Positions 1,994 to 19,783 of a DNA stretch of 64,000 nucleotides are shown piece by piece (position 1 is the stretch's first letter; every line of letters begins with the position of its first letter). Below the pieces are notes generated by a model. It saw only the letters and a list, made by a program, of their open reading frames with translations, was not told where the DNA came from and did not search any database. Location: the IMG/VR virus record IMGVR_UViG_3300020046_005824. One strand, 5' to 3'. The DNA comes from an uncultured virus (IMG/VR IMGVR_UViG_3300020046_005824). Lineage: Duplodnaviria > Heunggongvirae > Uroviricota > Caudoviricetes. Made by a program: the position numbers and the translations under genes.

Positions 1994-1996
1994 GGT

Positions 1997-2542: not shown

Positions 2543-2559
2543 ACTGCCCTCCAAATAGA

Positions 2560-2590: not shown

Positions 2591-2595
2591 ATGAA

Positions 2596-3750: not shown

Positions 3751-3761
3751 GTCGTCCTCCT

Positions 3762-4838: not shown

Positions 4839-5083
4839 TACATTTCCTTCATTGCGTCGGGTTGTGAAACATCAGTGAGCCCTCGACGAGCAGGCTCATA
4901 GATGGATTGGATACCCTGCAGAATAGCCATCTGCTCGGGTGTGAAGTCACTGAAAACGAAGTCGCGCACGATGCAACGACCCAAGGGGGTTGACTTCCTA
5001 AGTTCAAAGGTCGGCAACGCGAAAAGAACCGCCGCGCATTCATCTTCAGTGAAATCGACGATCGTCCATTTATTGATTTTCAT
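4838..5083 (-). CDS. Small paralog family C member (EDECAAVLFALP...TPEQMAIL..IY)
   Basis: TAATG overlap with AAA+ start; similar to the next three ORFs. Confidence 0.7.
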   Translation of the reverse strand: MKINKWTIVDFTEDECAAVLFALPTFELRKSTPLGRCIVRDFVFSDFTPEQMAILQGIQSIYEPARRGLTDVSQPDAMKEM

Positions 5084-5273
5084 TGTATAGCCTCGCTACT
5101 GCGCACAAGATTTCTCTTTGTTCTTTGGTTAGCATCTGATAGGTCGGTAGCGTTAACCTATACCTGTAATTCATCTGCGTGGTCACATATACCAGCATAG
5201 GAACAGCCATCTGTATCGCCGCGGCTTCTTCGTCCGTGCTCACGTACACGGAGTACGCTCCGACTTCTATCAT
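5070..5273 (-). CDS. Small paralog family C member (MIEV...TDEEAAAIQMAVP...TKEQREIL..LY)
   Basis: ATGA coupling; paralogy. Confidence 0.75.
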   Translation of the reverse strand: MIEVGAYSVYVSTDEEAAAIQMAVPMLVYVTTQMNYRYRLTLPTYQMLTKEQREILCAVARLYNENQ

Positions 5274-5479
5274 TTGTAAATATCCTGCACACCGCACGCG
5301 ATGAGTATCTGCTGCGGGGTGAAATGCCACACGCCTGCTGGTGGGCGAAACAGATAAGTAAACCATGCCTTGCTTGCGCCCTTCAGGCGTTCCCGCTTCA
5401 AGCCGGGTATTGCCAGCTCCAGAGCCGCGGCTTCTTCGTCCGTGTCGCAGTATATGCAAATGTCGCTTACGGTTATCAT
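5270..5479 (-). CDS. Small paralog family C member (MITV...TDEEAAALELAIP...TPQQILI..IY)
   Basis: ATGA coupling; paralogy. Confidence 0.75.
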   Translation of the reverse strand: MITVSDICIYCDTDEEAAALELAIPGLKRERLKGASKAWFTYLFRPPAGVWHFTPQQILIACGVQDIYK

Positions 5480-5667
5480 TTGTACAACTCCGCTACCGCG
5501 CGGGCTCGCGCTTGTAACTCCGGGGGAATCCCGGTGCTCCCGGGCATCACGAATATGATGCCGGGCAAGTGTGGTAAGTATTCTTCAAGCTCTGGACACG
5601 CCATCCGTATCGCTTGCTTTTCTTCTTCAGAATCGCAAGCGACGCTGACATTGCTGACCTCAATCAT
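5476..5667 (-). CDS. Small paralog family C member (MIEV...SEEEKQAIRMACP...LY)
   Basis: ATGA coupling at 5664-5667; paralogy. Confidence 0.75.
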   Translation of the reverse strand: MIEVSNVSVACDSEEEKQAIRMACPELEEYLPHLPGIIFVMPGSTGIPPELQARARAVAELYK

Positions 5668-5843
5668 CCCGCCGACAGCTTGCGCTTGAGCGCCCGCAGC
5701 TCCGCAATGTAGGTGGGCTGTCGCACCTGCTGGCCGTGCGCCCGGGCAAGTGCCAGAGAGACGAGCAGACGCAGCGTAGCCCACTGCTCGGGTGTCAGTT
5801 CGCCGAATTCATCTGTGTCGGGTTCAATAAGTTCGATGTTCAT
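5664..5843 (-). CDS. 59-aa hypothetical protein (MNIELIEPD...LTPEQWATLRLL)
   Basis: Translated by hand; ATGA overlaps at both ends. Confidence 0.7.
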   Translation of the reverse strand: MNIELIEPDTDEFGELTPEQWATLRLLVSLALARAHGQQVRQPTYIAELRALKRKLSAG

Positions 5844-6091
5844 TTGAACTCCTTAAAGGTATAGCCGTACATGGAAAGAATTTTGCACGCCAGATCACGG
5901 CGTTCGACCGACCCAAAATAATAGGTAACCCAGCGCCTGTCTACGTCTATGTGCCTCGGTACGTCTATGTGCCTCGGGCTGGCACCTGCCATCTCGAGCG
6001 CGGCGAGATGTTCATCGGACAGAGGGATTGTGTCCCCCGTCTGCGTACAGATAGCTTCATCATACGATTTGAAAATTTCAAGCTTTCTCAT
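5840..6091 (-). CDS. Small paralog family D member (LSDEHLAALEMAG...ILSMYGY)
   Basis: Paralogy with the next three ORFs. Confidence 0.75.
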   Translation of the reverse strand: MRKLEIFKSYDEAICTQTGDTIPLSDEHLAALEMAGASPRHIDVPRHIDVDRRWVTYYFGSVERRDLACKILSMYGYTFKEFK

Positions 6092-6329
6092 TTTCTTCTA
6101 CCTTGAAATCGTACATGGAACAAAGAATGTTGATGGCTAGCCACATCTGATTCTGGTCGTGGAACACCCAGTAGCGTCCTATGTTGTGGCTCGACGGTAG
6201 CAGCTGGGTAATGGTGCACGCGCACCCGGCCATCTGCAGAGCGGCGGTCTGCTCATTGCTGAGGTTGGCGCAGTCCGGCGACCGAGTGAAGAACGCATCG
6301 ATAGATGGCATCGGGCAGAGAATCCTCAT
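6078..6329 (-). CDS. Small paralog family D member (LSNEQTAALQMAG...ILCSMYDF)
   Basis: Paralogy. Confidence 0.75.
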   Translation of the reverse strand: MRILCPMPSIDAFFTRSPDCANLSNEQTAALQMAGCACTITQLLPSSHNIGRYWVFHDQNQMWLAINILCSMYDFKVEENEKA

Positions 6330-6333
6330 ACTG

Positions 6334-6573
6334 TCACCTGATATCTTCTATGGTGTATCCGTACACAGACACGAGAATGTGCGCGGCGGTAGCAGCGGAC
6401 TCTCCATTCTTGAACCGAAAGGCGAGCCAATTGCCGGCGCTGTTGTTATGTAGATGTGTGCGCACAACAGGTACGCCGGCCATTTCGAGCGCCGTTAGCT
6501 GTTCATCTGGCAGTAGCGCGGTGTCGCCGGCCACGGTGAAAAGCGCTTTCGTGGCTAGTTCAAGTGTTCTCAT
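6334..6573 (-). CDS. Small paralog family D member (LPDEQLTALEMAG...ILVSVYGY)
   Basis: Paralogy; ATGA coupling. Confidence 0.75.
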   Translation of the reverse strand: MRTLELATKALFTVAGDTALLPDEQLTALEMAGVPVVRTHLHNNSAGNWLAFRFKNGESAATAAHILVSVYGYTIEDIR

Positions 6574-6791
6574 ATTTTACTGATTCGATACCCGTACAGG
6601 TCGCGGAGCAGCATGGCAACGGCGGGCGCGTCATCCACGGTGTACGTCCAATACGGAAATGAATTCGCCGGTGGCGACGAACGTGCTGAGTATCCCGCCA
6701 ACTCTAAAGCGGCCAAATGCACGGGGTCTAACTGCGCGGTGTCTCCATTCGTGGTGAAAATGGTGTACGTAGCGTACTCAATCGTTCTCAC
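6570..6791 (-). CDS. Small paralog family D member (LDPVHLAALELAG...LLRDLYGY)
   Basis: GTG start overlapping upstream stop; paralogy. Confidence 0.7.
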   Translation of the reverse strand: MRTIEYATYTIFTTNGDTAQLDPVHLAALELAGYSARSSPPANSFPYWTYTVDDAPAVAMLLRDLYGYRISKI

Positions 6792-7060
6792 TTCTTCCCC
6801 GCCTTGGCGTACACGTGGAAAGCCTTCGGGTCGAGGCCGCGATGCGTGGACTTGTCGGACTTGTCGGACAGCCCATACATGGTCCCCGTGTTGCGCCCCG
6901 TGTCGCTCTCCATGCGCTCGCGGGACGCTGTAGCAGCCGCGCCGGCGTTCGCCCGGAAGTACGGGTCGCGGGCGAACACGGTGGGCTCGCCGGTGTCCCA
7001 GTTGAAGCCCGTGTGCGTGGACTTGATGATGTTCGTACCGGGCCAGTAGATGACTTTCAT
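6788..7060 (-). CDS. Hypothetical phage protein (MKVIYWPGTNIIKS...)
   Basis: GC-rich codon usage; coupled on both sides; separates families D and B. Confidence 0.75.
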   Translation of the reverse strand: MKVIYWPGTNIIKSTHTGFNWDTGEPTVFARDPYFRANAGAAATASRERMESDTGRNTGTMYGLSDKSDKSTHRGLDPKAFHVYAKAGKK

Positions 7061-7278
7061 TTATATTCCTCAGGGTTAAAAATAGCGGATATCTGTTCAT
7101 GAGTGAGCCGTACTAGCCCGTCTAGTGCTCGCTCACCTACCATGCTAAAAACCGTCCACCCTAGCTCTGTGCAAGTAGACCTACTTAAATAAATATAGTC
7201 GTGCCCCAATGTACGCAGCGTGCTACGGCAAGCATTACACAGGCGGGGGACAATGAGCTCGTCTATTCGGTACATCAT
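7057..7278 (-). CDS. Small paralog family B member (MYRIDEL...TELGWTVFSMVG)
   Basis: Paralogy; ATGA coupling. Confidence 0.75.
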   Translation of the reverse strand: MMYRIDELIVPRLCNACRSTLRTLGHDYIYLSRSTCTELGWTVFSMVGERALDGLVRLTHEQISAIFNPEEYK

Positions 7279-7490
7279 TTTCTCCCGAGCAGGGCTCTCA
7301 GCTGCCCCACGGTGGGGTAGTAATACTCGTCGAAGTCATTCGACACGCCCATCATGTTGAACGCTGCTACGCACAGCGGTGTGAGTTGTGAGTCGTGTAG
7401 AGTTATACGCGCCGATGGACGTCGGCCTCTCAGGACGCGGAGCATCTTTGCTCGTTCACCCTCGACGAACAACTCTCGCTTCTTATACAC
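7275..7490 (-). CDS. Small paralog family B member (MYKKREL...TPLCVAAFNMMG)
   Basis: Paralogy. Confidence 0.7.
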   Translation of the reverse strand: MYKKRELFVEGERAKMLRVLRGRRPSARITLHDSQLTPLCVAAFNMMGVSNDFDEYYYPTVGQLRALLGRK

Positions 7491-7704
7491 GGTAACTCTC
7501 CGGGTTGAACAGGGCAGCGAATGCTTTTCCGTCTACCCTATTATCGTCAGTGATTCCGATCATCTGCAGGGCGGCCAGACCGAGGGGAGTAAAATCTTCG
7601 GGGTTTACTTGTACAGACCAATCGCACGTCTGTGCGAACTGTCGTAGCCATCGAAGCACATTATTTTCACGGTCCCGATCGAGCATTTCTTCAACTGTGA
7701 ACAT
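7483..7704 (-). CDS. Small paralog family B member (MFTVEEM...TPLGLAALQMIG)
   Basis: Paralogy. Confidence 0.75.
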   Translation of the reverse strand: MFTVEEMLDRDRENNVLRWLRQFAQTCDWSVQVNPEDFTPLGLAALQMIGITDDNRVDGKAFAALFNPESYRV

Positions 7705-7707
7705 GAT

Positions 7708-7728
7708 GTACGTTACACTGTAATATAC
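7708..7728. promoter_or_regulatory. 21-bp palindromic site, copy 2
   Basis: GTACGTTACACTGTAATATAC fills the intergenic gap. Confidence 0.7.
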
Positions 7729-7940
7729 TAATCGAAGAGGGCGGCCAAGGTTTCAGCGGAAATACGCTCGTCGACACGGCCGGCCATGTCTAGGACAGCG
7801 ATGCCTAACTCAGTAAGCGCGTAGTCTGGCATGGAGACTTCTTTAATTTGTGTGCGGAAATATCTTTTTTTCCACTCGCGCATACTGCCAGCCCACTTGC
7901 CGCACAATTCCTCCGCCGTGTACGGGGCTTGCTGTTTCAT
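7728..7940 (-). CDS. Small paralog family B member (YTAEEL...TELGIAVLDMAG)
   Basis: Paralogy. Confidence 0.75.
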   Translation of the reverse strand: MKQQAPYTAEELCGKWAGSMREWKKRYFRTQIKEVSMPDYALTELGIAVLDMAGRVDERISAETLAALFD

Positions 7941-8191
7941 ACCAGTTCTTCCGGTTCTGCGGCGAGAAGTTGGAGCTCGAGCTCGATGGATATCTTAATC
8001 CTACGCCCAGACGTGTCGACGCCCGCCATACCGAATACTGCCAGCCCGAGTGGGGTGAATATTTCCCGGCCGGCGTTGGTAATGCCTAACGATTTGACGC
8101 CCGTACGCACAGCTTTACGTTTCAGAGCCAACCACTCCCGTACGCCTGGCACATATTCTGGCACGTAGAGGTCTTCAACTTTGTACATCAC
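7937..8191 (-). CDS. Small paralog family B member (MYKVEDL...TPLGLAVFGMAG)
   Basis: Paralogy; ATGA coupling. Confidence 0.75.
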   Translation of the reverse strand: MMYKVEDLYVPEYVPGVREWLALKRKAVRTGVKSLGITNAGREIFTPLGLAVFGMAGVDTSGRRIKISIELELQLLAAEPEELV

Positions 8192-8436
8192 GGCTCCGCC
8201 GAAAGAAGCGATACTTGCACATGTGAGGGGAGTCTGATAGTAGGGCGACTGCTTATGCCTTCTACGGTTCCTCCCGCCATCGTGAAAACAGCCACGCCGA
8301 GCGGCGTGATGTTATTCACATAATCCGCCGTAGAGTCGCCGACGTCTGGGGGATGCGCCCTACGGACGCGAAGCCACCCACGGACATTCCTGCGAGCATC
8401 ATCCCGATCATTGAAAATTTCATCTACGGTGTACAC
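8188..8436 (-). CDS. Small paralog family B member (MYTVDEI...TPLGVAVFTMAG)
   Basis: Paralogy. Confidence 0.75.
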   Translation of the reverse strand: MYTVDEIFNDRDDARRNVRGWLRVRRAHPPDVGDSTADYVNNITPLGVAVFTMAGGTVEGISSRPTIRLPSHVQVSLLSAEP

Positions 8437-8669
8437 GGTTGATCCATCCCGTAGAGCGCCAATTCTGTTTTCATGGGTAGCTCGTACTCGTTATTCTCTT
8501 CGTCGTATTGTGCGCCGACCATTGAATACACGGCTTCGCCCAGCTCCGTTAGCGTATCTTTCGAAACTTGAACTATGGTATCCGGGCTAGTATGTTTCCT
8601 AGCGTCTTCGAACCATATCTTCACAGTTTTATGGTACCGGGGGAGAAACAGCTCTTCTATCGTGTACAT
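8424..8669 (-). CDS. Small paralog family B member (MYTIEEL...TELGEAVYSMVG)
   Basis: Paralogy. Confidence 0.75.
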   Translation of the reverse strand: MYTIEELFLPRYHKTVKIWFEDARKHTSPDTIVQVSKDTLTELGEAVYSMVGAQYDEENNEYELPMKTELALYGMDQPCTP

Positions 8670-8980
8670 ACGTGCCGTCCTTTACCGTCGACGCGTGGGA
8701 TGACGCCGCCTGATGGGCCAACGAAATACTGGCACCCTGTCAACTCGTCCGTGGACACCTTGAGCCCTGAGCGGGGGGAGAACCACTCCTGCTGGTCGGA
8801 GTTGTCGCGCCCCAGTGGGGAGGCGGACACGAGGTACAACGCCGCGGCGATGACGGCGCACAGCCGGCCTAGCCGGTTGGCGGCGATGCCCGCAGCGGCG
8901 AGGGCAGCGGCCATGATGGCCGACGCAGCCTCTTGCATGGTGGCGTCAGCCAGCTTGACGGGCTCGGGAGTGGGTTTCAT
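8657..8980 (-). CDS. Hypothetical membrane-anchored protein (RSGLKVSTDELTGCQYF...PRVD)
   Basis: AGGAG RBS; hydrophobic segment. Confidence 0.7.
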   Translation of the reverse strand: MKPTPEPVKLADATMQEAASAIMAAALAAAGIAANRLGRLCAVIAAALYLVSASPLGRDNSDQQEWFSPRSGLKVSTDELTGCQYFVGPSGGVIPRVDGKGRHVCTR

Positions 8981-8981
8981 T

Positions 8982-9176
8982 TCATTCTCCTACGAAGAAG
9001 TACACGCGGCCGACAACGATGGGCAGCCGAGTGCGTGAGGGCACAACGGAGCGGGTGATCTTCACCCACCCGTCGGGGATGTCCCGCGTGGGGACGTCGG
9101 GGGCAACGGCGGGGGGTGCCGTGTGCCGCACGAATGGCTTGGCCGTGGCCAGCTGATCACGGAGGGAGAGTTTCAT
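8982..9176 (-). CDS. Hypothetical protein (MKLSLRDQL...)
   Basis: Start chosen after GGGG leader; tight packing. Confidence 0.6.
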   Translation of the reverse strand: MKLSLRDQLATAKPFVRHTAPPAVAPDVPTRDIPDGWVKITRSVVPSRTRLPIVVGRVYFFVGE

Positions 9177-9178
9177 GA

Positions 9179-9355
9179 TTACCCCCTGAGCAGCGTGTGT
9201 ATGCTGCGGTTCAGTAAGTTGTACGCGAGACCCAGAACCCACATGCGCAGCCGCACCGGTGCGCCAATGGCGTGCAGAATCTCGCGGGCCTGCAGAATCT
9301 CACGCGCCAGCTTCAGGTAGAGGCGGACGCGGAACAGCCGGAAGATGGGGGTCAT
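9179..9355 (-). CDS. Hypothetical basic protein (MTPIFRLF...)
   Basis: ATGA coupling, GGAG RBS. Confidence 0.55.
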   Translation of the reverse strand: MTPIFRLFRVRLYLKLAREILQAREILHAIGAPVRLRMWVLGLAYNLLNRSIHTLLRG

Positions 9356-9651
9356 GCTGGTCTCCCCTGCGTGAACGCATCGAGCTGCGTCCGAAGATTC
9401 TTCACGTCGCTCTCCAGCGCGAACAGCCGGTCCGCAGTGTCGCCGGCCAGCTCGCTGACATCTTCGAGCTCTTCCATCGGGCGGCGACCGCTCTCCCGCC
9501 ACGCGTCGAGCAGCGCGCGCCGCTCGTCGACGTTGAGGCGGGCGTGGATGAGTTTGCCGTCGACGAGAACATTGCCGTAAGCAACGCTGCCGACAGCGGA
9601 CAGCTTGTCGAGGTCGATGACAGTGTCATCAGGTAAGGTATAGAGTCGCAC
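9352..9651 (-). CDS. Hypothetical protein with C-terminal coiled coil
   Basis: AGGAG RBS plus GTG start. Confidence 0.65.
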   Translation of the reverse strand: MRLYTLPDDTVIDLDKLSAVGSVAYGNVLVDGKLIHARLNVDERRALLDAWRESGRRPMEELEDVSELAGDTADRLFALESDVKNLRTQLDAFTQGRPA

Positions 9652-9694
9652 GGTATTGCTCCTATGAAACGCGCCCCGAAGGGCGCTGGGTTGA

Positions 9695-10072
9695 TCAGAA
9701 TTTCGGGATCGACGCGAGTGCGTCGGCCAGCGCCTGCTGCGCGTCGCCATCGGACAGCAGCAGCTTGTCTTCGAGGGCTTGGTAGGGCGCCGCCTCCGGC
9801 GCGTAGTGTTTGAGATCGCAGTGCGCGTAACCGAAATTTTTCGGTATCTGCACGCCGAGCCCCGCCGCCACTTGCAGAGACCCGCGGTCAATCGTGTCGT
9901 TGAGCTTGTCAATCTTGGCCGAGATAGCCCGCCGCTGGGCGGACAACTTCTCGCGTTCGGCGCGCAGCTTCTTGAGTTTCGGGTTGTCTTCCACCGCCCG
10001 CTCGATAACCGCCGCGTGCGCCGCTGTGAAGCGCTGCAGAATGTGCTCGCGCTGTTCTTTGCTGAGTTTCAT
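9695..10072 (-). CDS. Hypothetical coiled-coil protein (MKLSKEQREH...)
   Basis: AGGAG RBS; GC-rich codon usage. Confidence 0.75.
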   Translation of the reverse strand: MKLSKEQREHILQRFTAAHAAVIERAVEDNPKLKKLRAEREKLSAQRRAISAKIDKLNDTIDRGSLQVAAGLGVQIPKNFGYAHCDLKHYAPEAAPYQALEDKLLLSDGDAQQALADALASIPKF

Positions 10073-10095
10073 GATTACTCCTGTTTCAAGGTTAG

Positions 10096-10116
10096 GTATG
10101 TTACGTTGTAACATAC
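10096..10116. promoter_or_regulatory. 21-bp palindromic site, copy 3
   Basis: GTATGTTACGTTGTAACATAC upstream of RBS. Confidence 0.65.
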
Positions 10117-10429
10117 AGTGAGTGACACCCACTGTTATGGATACGCATGTCGCACCAGTTCTGCGAACGCACATATGCATAACACTGGGTGTAAGCCAGT
10201 GTGGGAGCGCCGGGTTTGTCCGGAACTCCCCTCGGCATACGTATGAAAGCGGGCATATAAGGTGTAGGGCCTCGCTGTATGTTGTGCGTGTGCGGTTGGT
10301 ACCGCAGTATCCTGTGGCGGGGTTAGCCGCATATATGCGCTCGGAAGCGCAGGGATAAGTCTCACATAGATACGCACGCGCCATACATATTCATGGTCGT
10401 ATGCTGCCCCTGCTGTGGACACATGCATC

Positions 10430-10815
10430 GCCCTCCACTAGGGAGGTACGTTGGATGATTCTTATGCCGCCTTGTGATTTGGCCCTGTGGGCTTTCTAGT
10501 CTTTCAACTAGAGTCGGTGGTCAGTCTGCTGTTACCGTTCGACGGTGGTGGGATTCGACAGTAGCTTCGCTTTTGGGGCGGTATCCAATTGCAAGTCCAC
10601 TCCGGTAGTGTTGCTTGCTTCACGCTGCGTATGTGTAATGCGACGGATACGTCAGGCTGTCTGTCTATCCCTATCTTGGACTGGCCGCGGGAAGAACCTA
10701 TGCATGCCGCTTGGCTAGGGGGATTCTTCAGCAGGTATATTACACTGTAATTTACCTGTCGAAGTGTCTGTTGGTTGTTAATGAACTCAGGCCAGTGAGA
10801 ACGATCTCTCACTGT
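10430..10815 (-). ncRNA. Candidate structured non-coding RNA or long 5' leader
   Basis: Begins just downstream of a consensus promoter; several hairpins including a GAAA tetraloop stem; no convincing ORF. Confidence 0.4.
10735..10755. promoter_or_regulatory. 21-bp palindromic site, copy 4
   Basis: GTATATTACACTGTAATTTAC, arms extend as CAG...CTG. Confidence 0.65.
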
Positions 10816-10823
10816 CTGAATAT

Positions 10824-10852
10824 ATTATACCACAGGTAGAGTAATTTGTCAA
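10824..10852 (-). promoter_or_regulatory. Consensus sigma70 promoter
   Basis: TTGACA-17 bp-TATAAT, perfect match on the minus strand. Confidence 0.85.
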
Positions 10853-10863
10853 GTTTCTGACAC

Positions 10864-11280
10864 TTAGAGCAAACCGCCGAGAAACCCTTTCTTTTTCTCT
10901 TTGAGCTTTGCTACATCGTTTACATATCTGGCTTGTATCTGCGCGTAATGATTATCCTCCGCCTCCTTCACCCTCCGCCAGTGTTCTTGCCGCTCGGCGC
11001 CGCTACTGATAGCCATACCCATGTAGGCGCGGGCATTGACATTGGCATGAGGGTCCGGTTTCACCTGCCGACGCGCGTCGAGACAGAAATCGAACTCGCA
11101 CTGGGCAGCGCGCAGGGACACGATCGCATCGGCCATGGCCGTCGGGGTGTCCGGCGGCAGCATGTCCTGCCGGCCGGCATTGATGCCGCCCTCCGTCCAG
11201 TTGAGCATCTTGAGCGCGGCGATGGCCACGAGGTCCGAGGTCGAGATGACGGCGTCGCCGATGTAGGTATGTGTGATCAT
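10864..11280 (-). CDS. Hypothetical protein (MITHTYIGDAVIST...)
   Basis: AGGAGTCTCTC-ATG leader, the same as before the ORF starting at 328. Confidence 0.7.
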   Translation of the reverse strand: MITHTYIGDAVISTSDLVAIAALKMLNWTEGGINAGRQDMLPPDTPTAMADAIVSLRAAQCEFDFCLDARRQVKPDPHANVNARAYMGMAISSGAERQEHWRRVKEAEDNHYAQIQARYVNDVAKLKEKKKGFLGGLL

Positions 11281-11341
11281 GAGAGACTCCTGTCGTGGGT
11301 GTGGTTGTGGGTGGTAAGGGTTGGCGTGTCCAGCGTTCATA

Positions 11342-11545
11342 TTATTCAATCAGTAGAAGTGAAAAAAGAACTGGTTCGACTGGGCGTTGTTTATGGTGGA
11401 TGTTGTGCCATTCAAACTTGAGCGCTAGCCCTCTAATACGCTGGCCCCTATATGTTGCGACAGCGTACGCAGAGCGAGAGTACACTAGGTGAGTACGCTT
11501 GGCCAAGCGAATGTATATCTTATCTGTGAACGCGGAGAATATCAT
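11342..11545 (-). CDS. Small hypothetical protein, C-terminal tag array 2 (ends VLFSLLLIE)
   Basis: Shared C-terminal motif; TAA stop. Confidence 0.7.
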   Translation of the reverse strand: MIFSAFTDKIYIRLAKRTHLVYSRSAYAVATYRGQRIRGLALKFEWHNIHHKQRPVEPVLFSLLLIE

Positions 11546-11548
11546 GTG

Positions 11549-11752
11549 TTACTCGATCAGCAAGAGCGAGACAAGGAGTGATGGCGGGTAGGGGCGTCCG
11601 GAAGTAAACGCGGCGTCGAGCAAAAGGTCCGGGCTCCTGTGCTGCAGGGACGTAGTCACACGCGAGCCCGAGCGCACGTTGTACATGGTGTTGTACCACC
11701 ACTCCAAATGAGCTACTCGGTGCGGGGCGCGGCGAGAGACGGATGCAATCAT
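11549..11752 (-). CDS. Small hypothetical protein, C-terminal tag array 2 (ends LLVSLLLIE)
   Basis: Shared motif; GAG-TAA end. Confidence 0.7.
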   Translation of the reverse strand: MIASVSRRAPHRVAHLEWWYNTMYNVRSGSRVTTSLQHRSPDLLLDAAFTSGRPYPPSLLVSLLLIE

Positions 11753-11907
11753 TCGATCAGCAGCAGTTGGGTGAGTACATTCTCGCGCAGCGTCATACCA
11801 TACATTTTACCGCCTACTCGGACTGCGCTGAAGTAGCCCCGTAGTACAGCAGAATACATCGAGAGAGCGCAAGCTGGGGAATAGCGATAACCGTTAAGTA
11901 GAGTCAT
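11749..11907 (-). CDS. 52-aa hypothetical protein, C-terminal tag array 2 (MTLLNGY...NVLTQLLLIE)
   Basis: Translated by hand; ATGA overlaps at both ends. Confidence 0.7.
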   Translation of the reverse strand: MTLLNGYRYSPACALSMYSAVLRGYFSAVRVGGKMYGMTLRENVLTQLLLIE

Positions 11908-12092
11908 TCAATCAGCAGAAGTTGGGTGAGTATATCTTCGATCGTCCAACTGTACGTGTAGCCTGTAGCGGCGTCTACTTGTACGTTACCCCATGGAATT
12001 GCGTGTGCGCGGTACATAGTCATAATATTGAGTACCCGCGGTCCGTCACCGCACCAACATTGAAACACGGTAGAGGGCGCGATAAACATCAT
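11904..12092 (-). CDS. Small hypothetical protein, C-terminal tag array 2 (ends ILTQLLLIE)
   Basis: ATGA overlaps; shared motif. Confidence 0.7.
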   Translation of the reverse strand: MMFIAPSTVFQCWCGDGPRVLNIMTMYRAHAIPWGNVQVDAATGYTYSWTIEDILTQLLLIE

Positions 12093-13699
12093 TCAAGCCC
12101 GAGCATGTAAGGCTGCTGCATGTGCACCGACGGGGGGGTGCCGGGCAGCGTGGGCAGGCCGGCATACACGGGCTTCATCCAAGCGTGCGAGGACCCCACG
12201 AGCTTGGCCCGAGCGACGGTGAACGGTATCTCGATGCGGGCATACAGCACACCGTCAAACACGTCGAGGACCATCTCGGGTGGGTGCTTCTCCCAGAGGG
12301 CCAACAGAGAGTTTGCGTCGCTGGCAGCGTCGGGTCGCCGATGCTGGTCTGTGTGGGCGGCGCGGACCGGCCGACCCGGGCGCACGGGCTGGCACAGGGC
12401 CGCCCAAAGAAAATACTCGGGGTGGATGATATTAACTGCGCCAGAGGGCAGCGGCAAGGGTGCAGGTTGTGCATACACCGGCAGTGAGGCGCTGTGCGCG
12501 AACGGGATCACGGGAGTGAATGTGGTGTGGCCAGCTGTCCACGAGCCCGGTACGTCGTACTTGTGCAAGTAGGGCAGGCGGCTCTCCATGGGTACAGTGT
12601 CGGGGCGGGTGGCACGGGCCGCGGCACGCACGGTGCGCCACATCTGGTCCACACCCTCGCGCCGACGGTTCACCTTCTGGACATCGGTGGGTACGCCGGT
12701 GGCGGCGCCCCCACCCCCACCCTTCTGCGGGCGAGGAACTGGTGCGGCACGAGAGATGCGCGTGTCGGACGGGGTCGTGCGCGGCTGGGCTGCAGCAGGG
12801 GGCAGCAGGGCCGACATCTGGGTCATCGCCTCAAACATGAGCATGGGGGTCGCCGGCCCGAAGTAGGGGAGATAGAACGTGTGCGGCGTCGGCTGGTTGA
12901 GGGCGGATGTGGGGGTGTAGTGCACCCAGCGGGAATGTATGGCCGGGGTGGATGTGCGCAGGCTGTCGAACGGCGTGAGCAGCACGTCGCAGACGGGCCG
13001 GTGCGGGTCGAGCTCGTCCGTGGTCGGAGGCAGGCGGGAGCCGATCAGGGCGCACTGCTGCAGCGTCGAGTGCACGAGAGGCAGCCGCACAGGGGTGGGC
13101 GACGCTGCAACGGTGGAAGTCTGATGGTACGAGCCCCACGGAAACAGGTTGAGCTTCAGGTGGGTGAGCTTGAGAGCGGCGAACGGCTCACCGGTGGGCA
13201 GCGGCACACTGACCTTGACCCGGCCGTGAGGCATGCGCGAGCCGAGCGAGAGCCCCGGGAACTCCACAGGGTAGGCGAGTGGGGTGGGGGTGGCGGGTGA
13301 GGCAGCGAGCGAGAGGGGGATCGGGACATTGATCGGCAGGGCCGCGAGGGCGGCATGCTCAGGGGAGTCGACGGGGAACGTAGGCAGCGCGCAGTTGAGC
13401 CCGAGACGGTAGAAGCCGGGCTGGTCGAGCGAGGGGTCGAGCTCGGGGGAGTCGGCTGGGTTGATGTAGGCCGGGGGGGTAGGCGCAGAAGGGATACGCG
13501 CTGTATGTTCTGCTGGCAGCATCGATTCGCCGATGCTGCTGACGGCATCGGTGGAAGGGGGTGTGGGTTCGATGGGGGTCGATTCGGCGAGGCTGATGCC
13601 GGCTTCGGCAGTGTATTCAGGCGTGCAGGCTTCGGCAGTGTATTCAGGCGTGCAGGCTTCGGCACGGGGGATTTCGGCGGGGGTTTCAGTGTGATTCAT
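12089..13699 (-). CDS. Pro/Thr/Ala-rich 536-aa hypothetical protein
   Basis: Long ORF coupled to array 2; 27-bp tandem repeat near N-terminus; ends MLGLE. Confidence 0.65.
   Translation of the reverse strand: MNHTETPAEIPRAEACTPEYTAEACTPEYTAEAGISLAESTPIEPTPPSTDAVSSIGESMLPAEHTARIPSAPTPPAYINPADSPELDPSLDQPGFYRLGLNCALPTFPVDSPEHAALAALPINVPIPLSLAASPATPTPLAYPVEFPGLSLGSRMPHGRVKVSVPLPTGEPFAALKLTHLKLNLFPWGSYHQTSTVAASPTPVRLPLVHSTLQQCALIGSRLPPTTDELDPHRPVCDVLLTPFDSLRTSTPAIHSRWVHYTPTSALNQPTPHTFYLPYFGPATPMLMFEAMTQMSALLPPAAAQPRTTPSDTRISRAAPVPRPQKGGGGGAATGVPTDVQKVNRRREGVDQMWRTVRAAARATRPDTVPMESRLPYLHKYDVPGSWTAGHTTFTPVIPFAHSASLPVYAQPAPLPLPSGAVNIIHPEYFLWAALCQPVRPGRPVRAAHTDQHRRPDAASDANSLLALWEKHPPEMVLDVFDGVLYARIEIPFTVARAKLVGSSHAWMKPVYAGLPTLPGTPPSVHMQQPYMLGLE
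13601..13664. repeat. 27-bp tandem repeat x2.4 (AEACTPEYT)
   Basis: GGCTTCGGCAGTGTATTCAGGCGTGCA repeated exactly. Confidence 0.9.
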
Positions 13700-13736
13700 G
13701 GGGCGGCCTTCAGGGGGATTGCGGACATGTGAGGGA

Positions 13737-13757
13737 GTATATTACAGCGTAACATAC
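13737..13757. promoter_or_regulatory. 21-bp palindromic site, copy 5, overlapping a possible minus-strand promoter (TTGCGC-17-TAATAT)
   Basis: GTATATTACAGCGTAACATAC. Confidence 0.65.
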
Positions 13758-13805
13758 CGGGGCGCAAGGGGAATGTTTGGATTTGTTAGGTTCGTGGGGG
13801 TTCGG

Positions 13806-13933
13806 CATGTGGGATAATTAGGGGTGGGGAAAGGGAACATGTGGGATTATTTGGGGGAAAATGGGGGTGGAGGGGAGGGGGACATGTGGGATAATTAGGG
13901 TAAAAAGGGGTCGCTATAATTCATAATTAGGGG
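13806..13933. repeat. Direct repeats CATGTGGGATAATTAGGG (3 copies, one degenerate, plus a partial) in a G-run tract
   Basis: Copies start at 13806, 13838 and 13883. Confidence 0.75.
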
Positions 13934-14334
13934 TAAAAAAGTTGAGTTAGAAATTTAACACAGAAAAAACGAGTTCGTAGGATGGCGTGTCGGCGATTAA
14001 ATAACGTGCACTAGGGTGAGGAAACTCAGAAAAAAACTCGTGGATATGTCGATGTAATTATCTCATATAGAGGGGGTAATTACCTCATATAAGGGTGTGT
14101 TATCGTCGTATACGGTGTGTGAAAATAAGTCGTGTTTTTCTCATTTTCGTAGACCGTATACGGCTATAGTGATATTCACTGCAGGTAGCCGGAAAAAGAA
14201 TAGCGAGTAGTTTTTTTCGCCCCCGTACGAAAACCCTATAACCTAGTCAACAATAGGGGTATTCGATTTTAGTTCCCGAATAAAGGGAGCGATATGGCGG
14301 GAATTAGCTATGGACCCACGCCCCCTACGATTTT

Positions 14335-14455
14335 ACAGTTTCCTTCGTTTTCTATATATTATTTATTTATCTATTCTTATCCTTATTATATGTAATAAAT
14401 AAATAAATATAAATAAAATAAAGAAAATAAAGAAGAAAAAAATAAATCATATAGT
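14335..14455. other. Very AT-rich tract with (TAAA)n-like runs
   Basis: Almost only A/T in a GC-rich genome. Confidence 0.85.
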
Positions 14456-14613
14456 TGGGAAACTAGCTCATATAATCCCTCGCGCTGGCGCGCGTTTCGG
14501 CGTGCCGGACCCCGCGAGTGGGCTCCACGTATGCGGGAGTTGCCCATTACGCCCAGTAATGTATGACGCCATAAAATACTATCCCCCACCGTTGGAGTAT
14601 GATATTCCTGCTA

Positions 14614-14634
14614 GTATGTTACAGTGTAATATAC
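14614..14634. promoter_or_regulatory. 21-bp palindromic site, copy 6
   Basis: GTATGTTACAGTGTAATATAC. Confidence 0.7.
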
Positions 14635-14764
14635 CCGGCGTGCTCGCTACTCAGTAGGGAACTGGCATGAAAGCGCCTACCCGGTGCAGGGGTGGCGCGG
14701 TCCGGTGCTCTTAACCCAGTTGGGAACTGGCACGAAAGTGCCATACACAGAAACTGCGGGCAAA

Positions 14765-14798
14765 GAAAAAGCCCCCAGACCGTATGGTCTGGGGGCTT
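14765..14798 (-). terminator. Rho-independent terminator
   Basis: AAGCCCCCAGACC/GGTCTGGGGGCTT stem followed by a U-tract on the minus strand. Confidence 0.75.
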
Positions 14799-14804
14799 GA
14801 TGGG

Positions 14805-15092
14805 TCAGAGATCGACTACTGTCAATCGATATCGAATGCCTGCGGCTTCAACAATGAAAGTATCGGCGCCAGCATCAAGCAGGGCGCTCAACGCGCAAGA
14901 ATCGACGGCTTCAAACGCGCCGACAATCACCTCGCGAGTTTCCGGATGCACAATCTCCTCACAGAACCGCGCGGGATAGTCGGTGTGCGGTATCACGCTA
15001 CGCGCGTCAATCGCGCCTATCAGCGCGCGCGCTGCGTCAATGCGTGCTATCAACATAGCGCGGCATTCTGTATCTGATTTGTTTTTTGCCAT
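14805..15092 (-). CDS. Hypothetical protein (MAKNKSD...)
   Basis: GGAG RBS within a duplicated leader. Confidence 0.7.
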   Translation of the reverse strand: MAKNKSDTECRAMLIARIDAARALIGAIDARSVIPHTDYPARFCEEIVHPETREVIVGAFEAVDSCALSALLDAGADTFIVEAAGIRYRLTVVDL

Positions 15093-15132
15093 GAGTTACT
15101 CCAAAGGTTAAAAACCCCCCGCAGTGCGGGGG
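15078..15132 (-). repeat. 55-bp unit copy A: terminator hairpin + RBS + codons MAKNK
   Basis: 53/55 identical to 15440-15494. Confidence 0.9.
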
Positions 15133-15139
15133 CTTGAGG

Positions 15140-15454
15140 TCAGCGCGGGAACAGCTCACATACGCCGCATGGGCTGTCGCCTGCATAGCGTACGAAAGTG
15201 TATGTGTAGTGCCCGACGTCGTTATACGATGCGTAGGCATGAGCAAACACATAGGCTTGCGCAGTAGCACGCGAAATATTGTGTATCGCGGCGATTAAGT
15301 ATCGCGTTTCAATATCGCGGGAAGTGAATGGGCATCCCGTGCGCGATGCCTCCAAATCTGTCACTGTGGCGATGGTGACGTATTCAACACGCAATTCAGT
15401 GCGGATGCGTCGGCCTACTTTCACCATCGGCGCAGCGAGTTTGTTTTTTGCCAT
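15140..15454 (-). CDS. Hypothetical protein (MAKNKLA...)
   Basis: GGAG RBS within a duplicated leader. Confidence 0.7.
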   Translation of the reverse strand: MAKNKLAAPMVKVGRRIRTELRVEYVTIATVTDLEASRTGCPFTSRDIETRYLIAAIHNISRATAQAYVFAHAYASYNDVGHYTYTFVRYAGDSPCGVCELFPR

Positions 15455-15494
15455 GATTTACTCCAAAGGTTAAAAACCCCCCGCACTGCGGGGG
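15440..15494 (-). repeat. 55-bp unit copy B: terminator hairpin + RBS + codons MAKNK
   Basis: 53/55 identical to 15078-15132. Confidence 0.9.
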
Positions 15495-15504
15495 GTCCGG
15501 TCAC

Positions 15505-16149
15505 TTACTTGCTGGCTTTCTTCGCGGCTTCTTCTTTCGCTGCGTCAATCGCAGCGTCGAGCATTTTCAGCACCTTGTCGCGGGTCGCCTCACCGTCGGC
15601 GATTTTCTTCGCGAGACTGGTGATTGTCTTACCCAGCCAATCGCCCTTGGTGCCAGTCTTACCTTGCATCGCCTGAGCCAGCCGGCGCAGGGGCTGCATG
15701 GCATTGGCACGGTCAGCGGATGACAGCTGCAAGGTATCGGCCGTCACGCCGCACGCCGATACCATGGCCAGCACCACGCGACCCTTTGCCTTGTCGGCCA
15801 TGATCGCCTGAGCATAGCTGTAGGCGGCGACGCTCTTTTCCGTGCGCCCCCGGCCCTCGGTGGGCAGCGGGATACCAAACACGGCGCGAACCATGGGCGA
15901 CGTCGTTTCGCTCAGTTGGCTCAGGAACACGGCGGCAGGGATTTTCGCGCCCGTCAATTCCTTACGGGCCAGATCGAGAATCTCAGCACGCAGTCCGGCG
16001 CCAGTCTTGAGTACCTTGCGGGCATGGTCCAGTGCCTCCACGCCAGAATGCGCCAGCGTCCAGATGTTGCGGGTATCGAGCCGCAGCCCGATTCGCTTCG
16101 CGTCGGATGCGATGGCCGACAGGGTGCGAGTTACTTGTTTCTTTGCCAT
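15505..16149 (-). CDS. Hypothetical basic, Ala/Lys-rich early protein (MAKKQVT...)
   Basis: GGAGTAA RBS; first gene of the leftward arm. Confidence 0.75.
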   Translation of the reverse strand: MAKKQVTRTLSAIASDAKRIGLRLDTRNIWTLAHSGVEALDHARKVLKTGAGLRAEILDLARKELTGAKIPAAVFLSQLSETTSPMVRAVFGIPLPTEGRGRTEKSVAAYSYAQAIMADKAKGRVVLAMVSACGVTADTLQLSSADRANAMQPLRRLAQAMQGKTGTKGDWLGKTITSLAKKIADGEATRDKVLKMLDAAIDAAKEEAAKKASK

Positions 16150-16276
16150 TTGATTACTCCAATCACACACTATCATATATGTACGTCGCAGCCTAGTGTG
16201 TGCCTCAGCATTGACGTATGCAATGGGCTATCCCTTTGCATGGCTGTATTATAGCATAGCACTGAATAGCAGCATG

Positions 16277-16297
16277 GTACGTTACACTGTAATATAC
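16277..16297. promoter_or_regulatory. 21-bp palindromic site, copy 7, upstream of an extended -10 (TGCTATAAT, 16248-16256, minus strand)
   Basis: GTACGTTACACTGTAATATAC, identical to copy 2. Confidence 0.7.
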
Positions 16298-16500
16298 CTA
16301 TGGAGTGGGTGGGGAAACAATTAGGGGGTGCGCGCTTGTGTGGTCAGTGATACGAAGTCAGCCCCGCAATATAGAATTTCTCCATAAACCTACCATTTTC
16401 CCCCAGCGTCCGACGAAAACCTAACATTTTCTCCCGGCCCAGCCGAAGTTAGCGCTCACTGACCCCTTGACAACCGCCGAAAATCTGACAAAATCGGCGC

Positions 16501-16680
16501 ATGATGTCTCCCGACACCCCCCTTTCGGTTCATGCCGCGGCCAAGTACCTCGGCGTGAGCATCCGCACGCTCCACGAGTGGGAGAAGCGGAATCATCTGG
16601 TGCCGGCCTTCCGCACGCTGGGCGGCCACAGGCGCTACCTCGTCCGCCAGCTCGAGGAGGTCCGCAGTGGAGCCCGATGA
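16501..16680 (+). CDS. MerR/excisionase-type helix-turn-helix protein, 59 aa
   Basis: Translated by hand: AAKYLGVSIRTLHEWEKRNHLVPAFRTLGGHRRY; TTGACA at 16467. Confidence 0.8.
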   Translation: MMSPDTPLSVHAAAKYLGVSIRTLHEWEKRNHLVPAFRTLGGHRRYLVRQLEEVRSGAR

Positions 16681-17086
16681 GCAGAAGAAAAGTGAGTGGA
16701 CACTAACTCTCCCCCCGCTGCCGAACACCCCCGTGTTCGGAACCGAGAAGTTCGAGGGGCCGGATGCCGCTGAACTGCGGGAGCGCGAGTTCAAGTCGTA
16801 CGCCTACTCCCGGCAGATTTTTCACGACATCCTTGATCGGATCAAGGACGCGAACGTAGACGGCCCAGTTGCCGCGGAAGAGCTGCGGGCGTACGCGATG
16901 CGCCAGCTGATCGCGCTCACCGGCAACCCCGACCCGAAGGTCGCCCTGCAGGCAGTGAAACTCCTCGGCCAAGTGAAGAACATCGCTATTTTCGAGGAGA
17001 AGTCCGCGGCTCGGTCGTCTGCCGCCCTCTCGGATGCAGAACTCCAAGCCCGCGTCCGCGAGGCGATGCGCAAGGTACAGAAGTAA
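16667..17086 (+). CDS. Putative terminase small subunit
   Basis: GAGGAGG RBS; abuts terL; call is positional. Confidence 0.55.
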   Translation: MEPDEQKKSEWTLTLPPLPNTPVFGTEKFEGPDAAELREREFKSYAYSRQIFHDILDRIKDANVDGPVAAEELRAYAMRQLIALTGNPDPKVALQAVKLLGQVKNIAIFEEKSAARSSAALSDAELQARVREAMRKVQK

Positions 17087-19783
17087 GTGAGCGCTAACTT
17101 CTCGCAGGAGGATTTCCTCGCCCTCCCTCCGGAGCGGCAGCTGGAGCTGTTGCCGCTGCTGGAGGAGCTCGCCGCCCGCGGGCACCGCGCCCGGGCGAAG
17201 GACGACTTTTACTATTTCTGCCAGTCGGTGTACCCCGGGTACGTGAAGGGGACCCACCTGAAACTGTTGTGTGAGAAGCTCGACGCTGTCGCGCGCGGGG
17301 AGATCAAGCGGCTGATCATTGCGATGCCGCCCCGGCACTCTAAAAGCCAGCACTCGTCGATCTTCTTCCCGGCGTACTTCCTCGGGCGCCAGCCGAACGC
17401 GCAGATCATCACGGCGTCGCACACGGCCGACCTTGCCAAAGGCTTCGGGCGGAAGGTCCGGGATTTGATTGACTCCACTGCGTACCGGGACGTCTTCGGC
17501 TCGGCGATCGCGCTGCGTGCAGACGTGAAAGCCGCCGGCCAGTGGCAGACAGATCAGGGGGGCGCATACTACGCCGCTGGCGTAGACTCCGCCCTCGCCG
17601 GCCGCGGCGCGAGCTTGCTGTGTCTGGACGACCTGATCGATGAGCAGAAGGCGATCGAGGCGCAGCATCGCCCGGAGGTCTTTGAGAAGGTCTATGAGTG
17701 GTATTTGCTCGCCCGCCAGCGTCTGATGCCCGGCGGCGCGGTGGTGCTGTGCGCCTGTGTGGAAGAGAACCAACGCGTGGCCATGGCCGATGGCTCATGG
17801 CGCCCGATCAAGGATGTGCGGGTCAATGACAGCGTGATTGCGCATGGCGCGGATCGTAGCGCGACGCCGCGGCGCGTCAGCGCCGTGATCCCGCAGAAAG
17901 TGGACGACCTCATCGAGATTGTTTCGCGGTCGTGCGCGGTTAAAGTGAACGCCCGGCACCCGTTTCTTGTAGTTCGTGGGGGTCTCAAGACCGCGGCGCG
18001 GACGCAGGTAGAGGTTAATCAGGCGCACAACTGGGCGCTGGAGTGGGTTCGCGCCGATGCCTTGCAGCCCGGCGATACCGTCGTGACGCTTAAGAGTATT
18101 GACGATTCACAGCGGAAGATTTATCGGCCCTATGCTTACGACGGGTTGCAGATGTCGCAGGAGCATTTGTGGGGGCTCGGGTTCCTTTTTGGCGATGGGT
18201 GGCTCGTGAAATCCAGTCAGCGCGGTGTTGTCGGTCTCTGCATCGCTGCCGGCGTATACCCGGAGCTCAACGACCGCGCCGTCGCTGCGGTATCGGGAAT
18301 GCTTGGAGGTGTGAACTTCACACTGCGCACTAAGGCTCGGTACTACCGGGCGGAAGCTCAGGCGCAAGCTCGCTGGCTGCAGGGGATCGGGTTCGACGGC
18401 AGCGCACATACGAAGCGTATTCCGGAGTGGGTTTATCGGCTTCGCGCCGGTGCGAAACGGGCGTTTCTGCGCGGGTTCTTCGCGGCGGACGGGTATCTGC
18501 GCAAAGCCGAGACCGAGCGCGAGACTTACCGTGTTGGACTCTGCAACCGCGAGCTGCTCGACGATTTGCGGCTGCTGGCACGCACGTGCGGGGTAAAAAC
18601 GACGAAGATTCGTATGGACTCGGCCGTCGGTAAGCCCCCGAACACGTGCGTGGCCCGCGTGTTCACCCGCTACTCAGCTGAGTTTTCATTCCGTGAAAAC
18701 ATGATTGAACTCAGTGATCGCTACCGCCGGCAAGACATCGCCGGCAACCAGAAACAGCATTTTCGGTTCGAAGATGTTGAGATTGTGCGCCCCGCGGGGC
18801 GCGGTATGGTGTACGACCTCACGGTCGAAGGTGATGAGAACTTCGTAGCTGAAGGCTTCGTCACTCACAATACACGTTGGGCGCTGAATGACCCGACGGG
18901 GTTGATCCTCGAGCGGTCCAAGGAGGACTGGGAGATTCTCACCCTGCCGGCGCTGTGGGAGGACGGCCGCACGCTGTGGCCGGAGTTCTGGAAGCCGGAG
19001 GAGATTCTCAAGCTCAAGGAGGAGATGCCGCCTCTGCGGTGGTCAGCGACATACCAGCAGGCGCCCGAGCAGGGCGGCGGTACGCTGATCCAGCCCGACT
19101 GGCTGCAGTGGTGGCCGCACGAGAACCCGCCGAAAAAGATCGAGTCGATCATCGTGTCACTGGACCCCGCGTTCAGCGACAAGGACCGCGCGGACCCGTC
19201 GGCGTTCGTGGTGGCGGGGATATTCACGGCCGGCCCCGGCGAGTTGGGAGGACCGAGACCGGGAGACCCGTCGGACGCTCCGATCGCGAACATCATCGTG
19301 CTGGATGCGTTCGAGACGCGGGAGAATTTTCCTGATCTGAAGCAGACGTGTGTGGACATCTACCGGCAGTGGCGCCCGGAGGGGTTCATGATCGAGGCGA
19401 AAGCCAGCGGCGTGCCGTTGATTCAGGAGCTCAAGCTAATCGGCCTGCCGGTGACGGCGTTCGACGTCAACCGGGGCACGAAAGGGAACGCGAATGACAA
19501 GATTTCACGCGTGAACCGCACGTTGCCGATCTATCAGGCGCTGCGGGTGTGGTTGCCGGAGAATAGGGCGTGGGCCGACCATTTTGCGACCCAGCTGACG
19601 CGGTTTCCGATGGTCTCCCACGACGACTTGGTGGACGCGATGACCCAGATTCTGGTGTATTTCCGCAACACTCGGCTGATTACGACCCCGACGGACGACT
19701 CCATCGGCGACTTTTCGGACTCCGACAGCGAAAAACCCGGCTTGGCCGGGTTTGGGGGTTATCTCTCTTCGGTCTTCAAGTGA
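17087..19783 (+). CDS. terL: Terminase large subunit, intein-containing
   Basis: MPPRHSKS Walker A, LLCLDD Walker B, nuclease SLDPA...HDDLVDA. Confidence 0.95.
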   Translation: MSANFSQEDFLALPPERQLELLPLLEELAARGHRARAKDDFYYFCQSVYPGYVKGTHLKLLCEKLDAVARGEIKRLIIAMPPRHSKSQHSSIFFPAYFLGRQPNAQIITASHTADLAKGFGRKVRDLIDSTAYRDVFGSAIALRADVKAAGQWQTDQGGAYYAAGVDSALAGRGASLLCLDDLIDEQKAIEAQHRPEVFEKVYEWYLLARQRLMPGGAVVLCACVEENQRVAMADGSWRPIKDVRVNDSVIAHGADRSATPRRVSAVIPQKVDDLIEIVSRSCAVKVNARHPFLVVRGGLKTAARTQVEVNQAHNWALEWVRADALQPGDTVVTLKSIDDSQRKIYRPYAYDGLQMSQEHLWGLGFLFGDGWLVKSSQRGVVGLCIAAGVYPELNDRAVAAVSGMLGGVNFTLRTKARYYRAEAQAQARWLQGIGFDGSAHTKRIPEWVYRLRAGAKRAFLRGFFAADGYLRKAETERETYRVGLCNRELLDDLRLLARTCGVKTTKIRMDSAVGKPPNTCVARVFTRYSAEFSFRENMIELSDRYRRQDIAGNQKQHFRFEDVEIVRPAGRGMVYDLTVEGDENFVAEGFVTHNTRWALNDPTGLILERSKEDWEILTLPALWEDGRTLWPEFWKPEEILKLKEEMPPLRWSATYQQAPEQGGGTLIQPDWLQWWPHENPPKKIESIIVSLDPAFSDKDRADPSAFVVAGIFTAGPGELGGPRPGDPSDAPIANIIVLDAFETRENFPDLKQTCVDIYRQWRPEGFMIEAKASGVPLIQELKLIGLPVTAFDVNRGTKGNANDKISRVNRTLPIYQALRVWLPENRAWADHFATQLTRFPMVSHDDLVDAMTQILVYFRNTRLITTPTDDSIGDFSDSDSEKPGLAGFGGYLSSVFK
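17756..18871 (+). mobile_element. Intein with LAGLIDADG homing endonuclease (372 aa)
   Basis: Starts CVEENQRVAMADG, ends FVAEGFVTHN followed by T; LGFLFGDG and LRGFFAADG motifs. Confidence 0.92.

Follow-up and report, generated by a model that had tools for sequence, protein, structure and literature searches.

Several described phage and cellular systems bear on small proteins that have a terminal peptide in common. In T-even phages, the internal proteins are described as diverse defence proteins in which only the capsid targeting sequence is conserved, and anti-defence roles have been shown for IPI and IPIII (PMC3012670; PMC9391042). Phages also encode a pair composed of a MoxR ATPase and a peptidase-vWA protein. 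Virion assembly has been proposed as the role of this pair, in an account where small tailed proteins are not mentioned as clients or adaptors (PMC7824862). The metal of the MIDAS site has been described as taking its sixth ligand from an acidic residue of the target (PMC9976466), and MIDAS has been reported to bind extended peptides (PMC7159879). As judged mostly from titles and abstract openings, no published description of C-terminally tailed phage microprotein arrays was found.

Here, two arrays of small phage genes are described whose products end in a common Leu-rich peptide closed by an acidic residue. The nine small genes are a lineage-private, fast-changing set with exchange at the level of gene junctions. 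Within the collections scanned, the tail is found only in this lineage and, as far as sequence comparison can tell, is new.

The phage and its early region

The window, meaning the whole 64,000-nucleotide stretch of DNA that was analysed, is nearly all of one 64,118-bp contig of a podovirus-like wastewater phage. Its genes include those for terminase, portal, major head, ejection-type proteins, DNA polymerase A and primase/helicase (PHROGs and Pfam). The head protein shares 59% identity with its counterpart in phage MinM2 and 53% with the one in HTVC023P. The terminase gene (17087-19783) encodes 898 aa, and each end of the protein matches PHROGs; several relatives have about 450 aa, and the gene possibly contains an intein or other insert. 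A terminase scan for relatives yielded two near-identical contigs, neither of which reaches the arrays, and single-protein scans with the vWA, ATPase and 536-aa genes yielded zero loci. Most sequencing runs with array-2 sequence come from wastewater or sludge metagenomes, and 20 of 24 rows, from 13 studies, include part of the region. RNA runs X18-X20 have small word shares with the window, which were not counted as expression evidence.

Both arrays lie on the minus strand in the early region. A 22-bp palindrome is found ahead of early gene blocks, with copies at 2565, 7708, 10096, 10735, 13737, 14614 and 16277. It is likely a phage promoter or operator, which at 13737 would serve the array-2 unit:

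13737-13758, before the array-2 unit: 22-bp palindrome, one of 7 copies

Other features of the window were seen in passing. A perfect sigma-70 consensus (12/12, with an extended -10) lies on the minus strand at 10824-10852, just downstream of the array-2 unit. The AT-rich, non-coding stretch 13800-14460 contains three 18-nt repeats and long inverted repeats, and is possibly an origin or genome end. A 55-nt repeat (15078-15132 and 15440-15494, 96% identical) joins a terminator-like hairpin, a Shine-Dalgarno (SD) site and the start MAKNK in two neighbouring genes. An Rfam search of 1-16700 returned no match.

Two arrays of tailed small genes

The array genes, together with the large gene that heads array 2 and the gene downstream of it, are as follows:

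12089-13699, minus strand: 536-aa Pro-rich ORFan; heads array 2, ATGA-coupled, ends YMLGLE
11904-12092, minus strand: a2-1, 62 aa, ends ILTQLLLIE, stop GAA-TGA
11749-11907, minus strand: a2-2, 52 aa, ends VLTQLLLIE, stop GAA-TGA; alleles P0126-P0129 and P0142
11549-11752, minus strand: a2-3, 67 aa, ends LLVSLLLIE, stop GAG-TAA; alleles P0122-P0124
11342-11545, minus strand: a2-4, 67 aa, ends VLFSLLLIE, stop GAA-TAA; allele P0140
10864-11280, minus strand: 138-aa gene that follows array 2; has its own SD
1227-1457, minus strand: a1-1, 76 aa, GTG start, ends PLTELLLLE; alleles P0138 and P0139
1021-1230, minus strand: a1-2, 69 aa, ends VLVQLLLLE
812-1024, minus strand: a1-3, 70 aa, ends TLAFLLLLE; alleles P0141 and P0143
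612-815, minus strand: a1-4, 67 aa, ends VLSDLLILE; allele P0144 ends LLVLE
403-615, minus strand: a1-5, 70 aa, degenerate F/D tail IFDAFLFLD; alleles P0136 and P0137

An earlier reading of the sequence alone had reported four coupled ORFs with LLLIE ends in array 2, and all four were recovered on the minus strand, ending as it stated. Their coupling held in part: the others overlap, but a2-3 and a2-4 are set apart by 3 nt between TAA and ATG. The same reading had proposed one consensus for nine tagged proteins. In its strict form this fits six of the nine, whereas L-x-x-L-L-[LI]-[LI]-E fits eight; the ninth (403-615) ends IFDAFLFLD. The split that it had noted between -IE in array 2 and -LE in array 1 was recovered in 4/4 of each array, array 1 (403-1457) being composed of four -LE ends and one FLFLD end. 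The tails of a2-1 and a2-2 are 86% identical in DNA over 37 nt, which fits local duplication.

The tails are far more frequent than expected by composition. The string L[LI][LI]E stands before a stop eight times in the window, compared with a mean of 0.2 and a maximum of 2 in 60 order-4 Markov genomes. A six-frame scan for a hydrophobic residue, two free positions, four hydrophobic residues and an acid gave 14 matches, namely the nine array tails and five scattered internal ones. GC3 is 0.40-0.63 in eight of the nine tagged genes and 0.75-0.91 in core genes.

The 536-aa gene may be a degenerate tenth tailed member. Only one relative of this ORFan was found, and it is 99% identical; a 9-aa tandem repeat within the protein differs in copy number between alleles. 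An AbiEii-type nucleotidyltransferase was considered for this protein and set aside as weak (score 0.91, 115/256 features in common, below the bar of the tool). At the other end of the array, an in-frame ATG lies 1 nt past the a2-4 stop and could also couple the 138-aa gene. A terminator-like hairpin on the opposite strand lies just past array 2. The array-2 junctions contain no sigma-70 site; one 9/12 match lies inside a2-1.

Selection on the tail as a peptide

Codon use in the tails supports selection on the tail as a peptide. At five Leu/Ile positions in eight tails (40 codons), each of the six Leu codons and each of the three Ile codons is used. Where codons at these positions begin with T, they are TTA or TTG in 9/9 cases and Phe in none (p ~0.005). 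The terminal residue had been argued from the sequence not to be forced by the ATGA overlap, and the other genes with a 4-nt overlap bear this out: only 1/21 ends in Glu, which is the 536-aa gene, and 9/21 end in Lys. A terminal acid (Glu or Asp) is present in 9/9 tagged proteins, including those at the three non-overlap stops in the window, and the contig of run X7 has one further non-overlap stop with a terminal acid.

The tail occupies the position of the following gene's SD site. Pairing to the anti-SD is absent at the eight starts that follow a tail (seven behind tagged genes and one behind the 536-aa gene) in comparison with 32 other genes (p 4e-5). These observations support the conclusion that the tail is retained at the expense of an SD. 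Shared tails in related loci are mostly purine-rich K/E/G ends that fit by-products of an SD; the tail described here is the opposite.

The same junctions could be read as signals acting in cis, with the tail unit serving as a U-rich or nascent-peptide reinitiation signal and as a crossover site for gene shuffling. Genes behind a tail have no SD, strain breakpoints fall at junctions and two tails are 86% identical in DNA, all of which would agree with such a role. Nevertheless, codon choice follows Leu and not U content, local mRNA folding energy at post-tail starts does not differ from that at other starts and is not weaker (p 0.19), and a1-1 is coupled although no tail lies upstream of it. 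A cis signal would account for the shuffling, but it would leave the peptide unexplained unless that peptide acts while nascent. This explanation is considered very unlikely.

A tail selected as a peptide could instead be a virion-loading signal that does at the C-terminus what the capsid targeting sequence does in T4, with the small proteins as injected anti-defence cargo. The T4 signal is N-terminal and cleaved, which counts against this role. The motif is present in no structural gene of this phage in the six-frame scan of the window, and coupling without an SD suggests low expression. In its favour, the phage has ejection-type and DarB-like genes, and the T-even internal proteins have the same design of diverse bodies with a conserved targeting sequence (PMC3012670). 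On this evidence, virion loading is regarded as quite improbable.

The bodies of the tagged proteins

Family searches returned little for the nine proteins. In PHROGs, 0/9 match at E 0.01; in Pfam, none lies above threshold, with one sub-threshold match at E 0.096; and the best hit of a profile search of the PDB has E 0.66. The Atlas feature score for a2-1 is 0.79. A profile built from the full set of nine picked up 10 of 912 candidate proteins, every one an allele of window genes. When the bodies were stripped of their tails and compared by hhalign, 0/36 pairs were related (best probability 2.5%), and their net charge ranges from -6 to +10. A weak [RKDE]-hydrophobic-small-P motif in 5/9 bodies gives a weak hint of common descent, with family-wise p values of 0.035 for 4-mers, 0.13 for 3-mers and 0.22 for 5-mers. 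It may be that the bodies are related after all, as very distant paralogues.

Common descent is the core of a further explanation, in which all nine proteins share one small fold, made of a few strands and a C-terminal helix, and are paralogues that have diverged to an extreme degree. The tail helix would pack against the core or oligomerise and would have no outside reader, and coupling and junction recombination would fix the stop. The uniform length (52-76 aa) suits a single fold, as do the motif in 5/9 bodies and the F/D variant at 403-615, which preserves hydrophobicity and not sequence. Three other tandem paralogue families in the region each have a conserved helix, and proteins with a TKEVADI tail in another lineage (see below) by eye resemble one diverged beta-barrel family. 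Set against these points are the absence of any related pair among the 36, the spread of charge, and the terminal acid: a helix in a core needs no acid as its last residue, yet one is present in 9/9 proteins, even at non-overlap stops. A single diverged fold is regarded as almost as likely as docking of the tail on the phage's own MoxR/zincin-vWA pair (see below).

Strain variation

The sequence-only reading had predicted gain and loss of bodies with the tail retained, and the contigs of four runs, read by hand, agree with it: genes are swapped or added, the tail is kept, and exchange is seen at gene junctions. Run X5 departs from the window just past the a2-1 start codons and rejoins within the a2-2 tail, and the incoming gene that replaces a2-2 also ends L-x-x-L-L-L-I-E. 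In run X7, which at a depth of 3.4 is weak alone, a2-1 is split over two genes. The first 13 codons of a2-1 open a gene with a tail and a TAA stop, and the a2-1 body sits in the second gene under a different N-terminus. Allele P0131 has the a2-1 body under another N-terminus similar to that in run X7. Given these two arrangements, a2-1 probably arose by a deletion that fused two tagged genes.

Run X1 provides a view of array 1. In its contig over 678-2658, 12 of 13 differences lie in array-1 bodies; 11 of the array-1 differences are in residue-changing codons and none is in a tail. The vWA gene in this run is identical over 1,099 nt, with 0 differences. Within 1286-1300 in the same run, all plus-strand C (8/8) in a 15-nt patch read T, so that six a1-1 residues are changed. 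The patch looks like processive deamination or patch replacement, and no template for it was found in the genome. A diversity-generating retroelement was rejected, as a simple motif scan found no template repeat and one FADDV motif in a non-RT context.

The expectation that the tail is more conserved than the body stood for one allele set and not for the other. Among 17 alleles of eight genes, a set that comes partly from a tail-weighted search, 73/448 body sites and 3/72 tail sites are variable (p 0.006); without the non-homologous N-terminus of a2-1, the body count is 64/438 (p 0.013). Among 10 alleles obtained without this bias by exact cluster look-up, 17/198 body sites and 2/36 tail sites are variable, and the difference is not significant (p 0.75). 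Allele P0129 has a change from Leu to Pro inside the tail.

A MoxR/zincin-vWA pair between the arrays

Two genes between the arrays are candidate partners of the tails, and three families of microproteins lie directly upstream of the ATPase gene:

2596-3750, minus strand: DUF2201_N zincin-like and vWA gene, candidate partner of the tails
3762-4838, minus strand: MoxR-type AAA+ ATPase (AAA_5, PHROG 1297), candidate partner of the tails
4838-5843, minus strand: microprotein family B
5840-6791, minus strand: microprotein family C
7057-8669, minus strand: microprotein family D

The genes at 2596-4838 have the hallmarks of the phage MoxR/zincin-vWA pair, with AAA_5 beside DUF2201_N and DUF2201, HExxH and DxSxS...D. 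The zincin residues H77, E78 and H81 and the MIDAS residues D263, S265, S267 and D352 are invariant in 36 sequences. In a structural model of the zincin-vWA protein (mean pLDDT 80.5), the vWA domain matches MIDAS-bearing I-domains, and 553 phage records match the protein. The distance from the vWA gene to array 1, downstream of it, is 1.1-2.2 kb; array 2 belongs to a separate unit, about 6.5 kb upstream of the ATPase gene.

Families B, C and D contain about 5, 4 and 8 tandem genes, have no PHROG match and each have their own conserved helix. Many of their members have a common helix A-[AV]-[LIFV]-x-M-[AVI]-G, and allele replacement is seen in run contigs in 4838-8669 too. The LLLLE tail resembles the family C helix LAALE(MAG), a likeness by eye only. 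A by-eye likeness of family B tails and LLLLE to TKEVADIMRSV was dropped, as a profile gave no support.

Tailed microproteins in other phages

The tail of this phage is present in none of 5,362 small ORFs from 121 related loci, so the conserved vWA is not accompanied by a conserved tail. DNA patterns for two successive tails, restricted to one spacing range and TGA stops, gave 3 hits in IMG/VR, 5 in JGI metagenomes and 15 in GTDB genomes, and 0/23 were paired tailed small ORFs, so that all are chance hits.

Other microproteins with a tail in common were found downstream of the vWA gene in 5/99 other vWA loci, a count drawn from loci with a vWA gene only, 82 of them with at least 2.5 kb downstream. 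Four loci (L003, L004, L010 and L022) have the tail [IV]TKEVADI[IM]RxV, and L114 has DINFYI[CA]QL[QH]. At L114:5084-6347, the vWA gene is followed directly by genes for four small Gly-rich proteins, whose common ending is RLLx(D/N)xxxDINFYI[CA]QL. In MinM2, three paralogues lie between the MoxR and vWA genes. A scan for the TKEVADI tail found 15 contigs, four of them already known, with a vWA gene nearby in 11/15; the remaining four have at most about 1.5 kb of upstream DNA. All 15 belong to one lineage (GC 41-43%), so the linkage to vWA may be synteny alone. This tail is mostly Val-ended and not acidic, and its profile placed no window tail above background (best rank 144/6,084). The TKEVADI lineage (L022:6187-11648, L003, L004, L010 and L145-L159) is from freshwater and has up to 7 microproteins, most of them placed downstream of the vWA gene at 2-5.5 kb; of 10 tested, none has a Pfam match at the curated cut-off.

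Confinement of a tail to one lineage is what would be expected of a ligand specific to one host, and the tail might instead have a host reader. It could be a C-terminal degron that keeps toxic early proteins short-lived, or a host AAA+ protease or chaperone could use it as a handle, and its strictly terminal position suits both. Degrons of the ssrA type, read by ClpX and Tsp, have small non-polar ends and are blocked by terminal acids; as 9/9 proteins here end in Glu or Asp, an ssrA-type degron was rejected. DnaK disfavours acids next to its Leu core, which also counts against a host reader. Host-read tails are considered unlikely, even with the precedent of phage adaptors of host proteases such as SPO1 Gp53, which acts on ClpC (PMC6873191).

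A proposed docking tail

It is rather probable that the tail docks on some common partner. That this partner is the phage's own MoxR AAA+/zincin-vWA pair is a tentative prediction, held with less than even confidence. The L-x-x-L-L-[LI]-[LI]-E peptide would be a docking handle for the pair. The four tail Leu/Ile would fill a hydrophobic groove beside the MIDAS, and the carboxylate of the terminal Glu would complete the MIDAS Mg2+ shell. The variable bodies would bind host proteins, probably of defence, and so would deliver a range of host targets to a single machine for remodelling or proteolysis.

Several lines of evidence point towards docking on the pair: the constraint on the peptide, the terminal acid in 9/9 proteins, the cost of an SD, the swaps that keep the tail, and the invariant MIDAS and HExxH residues. 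It is also favoured by the tail-sharing microproteins at 5/99 vWA loci and the linkage of TKEVADI to vWA in 11/15 contigs. Other evidence weighs against it. Most vWA loci have no array, and array 2 lies about 6.5 kb away in a separate unit. The unbiased allele contrast (p 0.75) and the Leu to Pro change in P0129 do not speak for a strictly kept tail. The TKEVADI tail is Val-ended, mismatches by profile and comes from a single lineage. Finally, the role proposed in the published account of the phage pair is virion assembly (PMC7824862).

Docking on the pair would allow a swappable adaptor library, in which every body would have its own host protein to bind and the common tail would fit into the MIDAS of the machine. 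This extended proposal is speculative and on present evidence improbable. If true, it would be the phage parallel to the way in which F-box or SOCS-box proteins serve ubiquitin ligases, and every phage lineage would evolve a tail of its own.

What would each outcome mean? Most small early phage genes have had no function assigned to date, and one tail is a handle on nine at once. If the partner is the MoxR/zincin-vWA pair, a widespread phage module would gain a function, and the phage would be seen to direct targeted protein remodelling or degradation. Should the tail be no more than a conserved helix of one family, the arrays would still clearly exemplify tandem microgene expansion, and gene swapping at junctions among co-occurring strains would stand.

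Comparison with known systems

The T-even internal proteins IPI and IPIII are alike in being small and diverse, with a common short terminal peptide and a strain-variable locus, and the arrays have both the diverse bodies and the strain-variable locus. The N-termini of the tagged proteins have only Met in common, with no N-terminal targeting sequence. The array peptide is C-terminal, Leu-rich and without sequence likeness to that of the T-even proteins, and it belongs to an uncultured, podovirus-like phage. The arrays fall outside the T-even group because their shared peptide is C-terminal.

The PeSL cassettes of T4-type hyperplastic regions are similar in having repeated short elements where accessory genes shuffle (PMC2839356). 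As described in that account, PeSLs are non-coding and composed of a promoter and a stem-loop, whereas the array repeat is coding and selected as a peptide. A PeSL-type cassette was rejected for array 2, where a promoter and stem-loop are not present at each junction. SPO1 Gp53 is likewise made early by a phage and redirects an AAA+ machine; it is described as a single 25-kDa protein that acts on the host machine ClpC, without a family that shares a tail (PMC6873191).

The phage MoxR and zincin-vWA pair itself (PHROG 1297 and 1314; AAA_5, DUF2201_N and DUF2201; N4 gp25-like) is present in the window. In cellular MoxR-vWA remodellers such as NorQ/NorD, the target supplies an acidic residue that the MIDAS binds, and the terminal Glu is proposed here to have the same role. 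NorQ/NorD is described with one fixed cellular target, no peptidase domain and no variable partner array (PMC9976466). Placed among these systems, the arrays are tagged or multigene accessory phage proteins.
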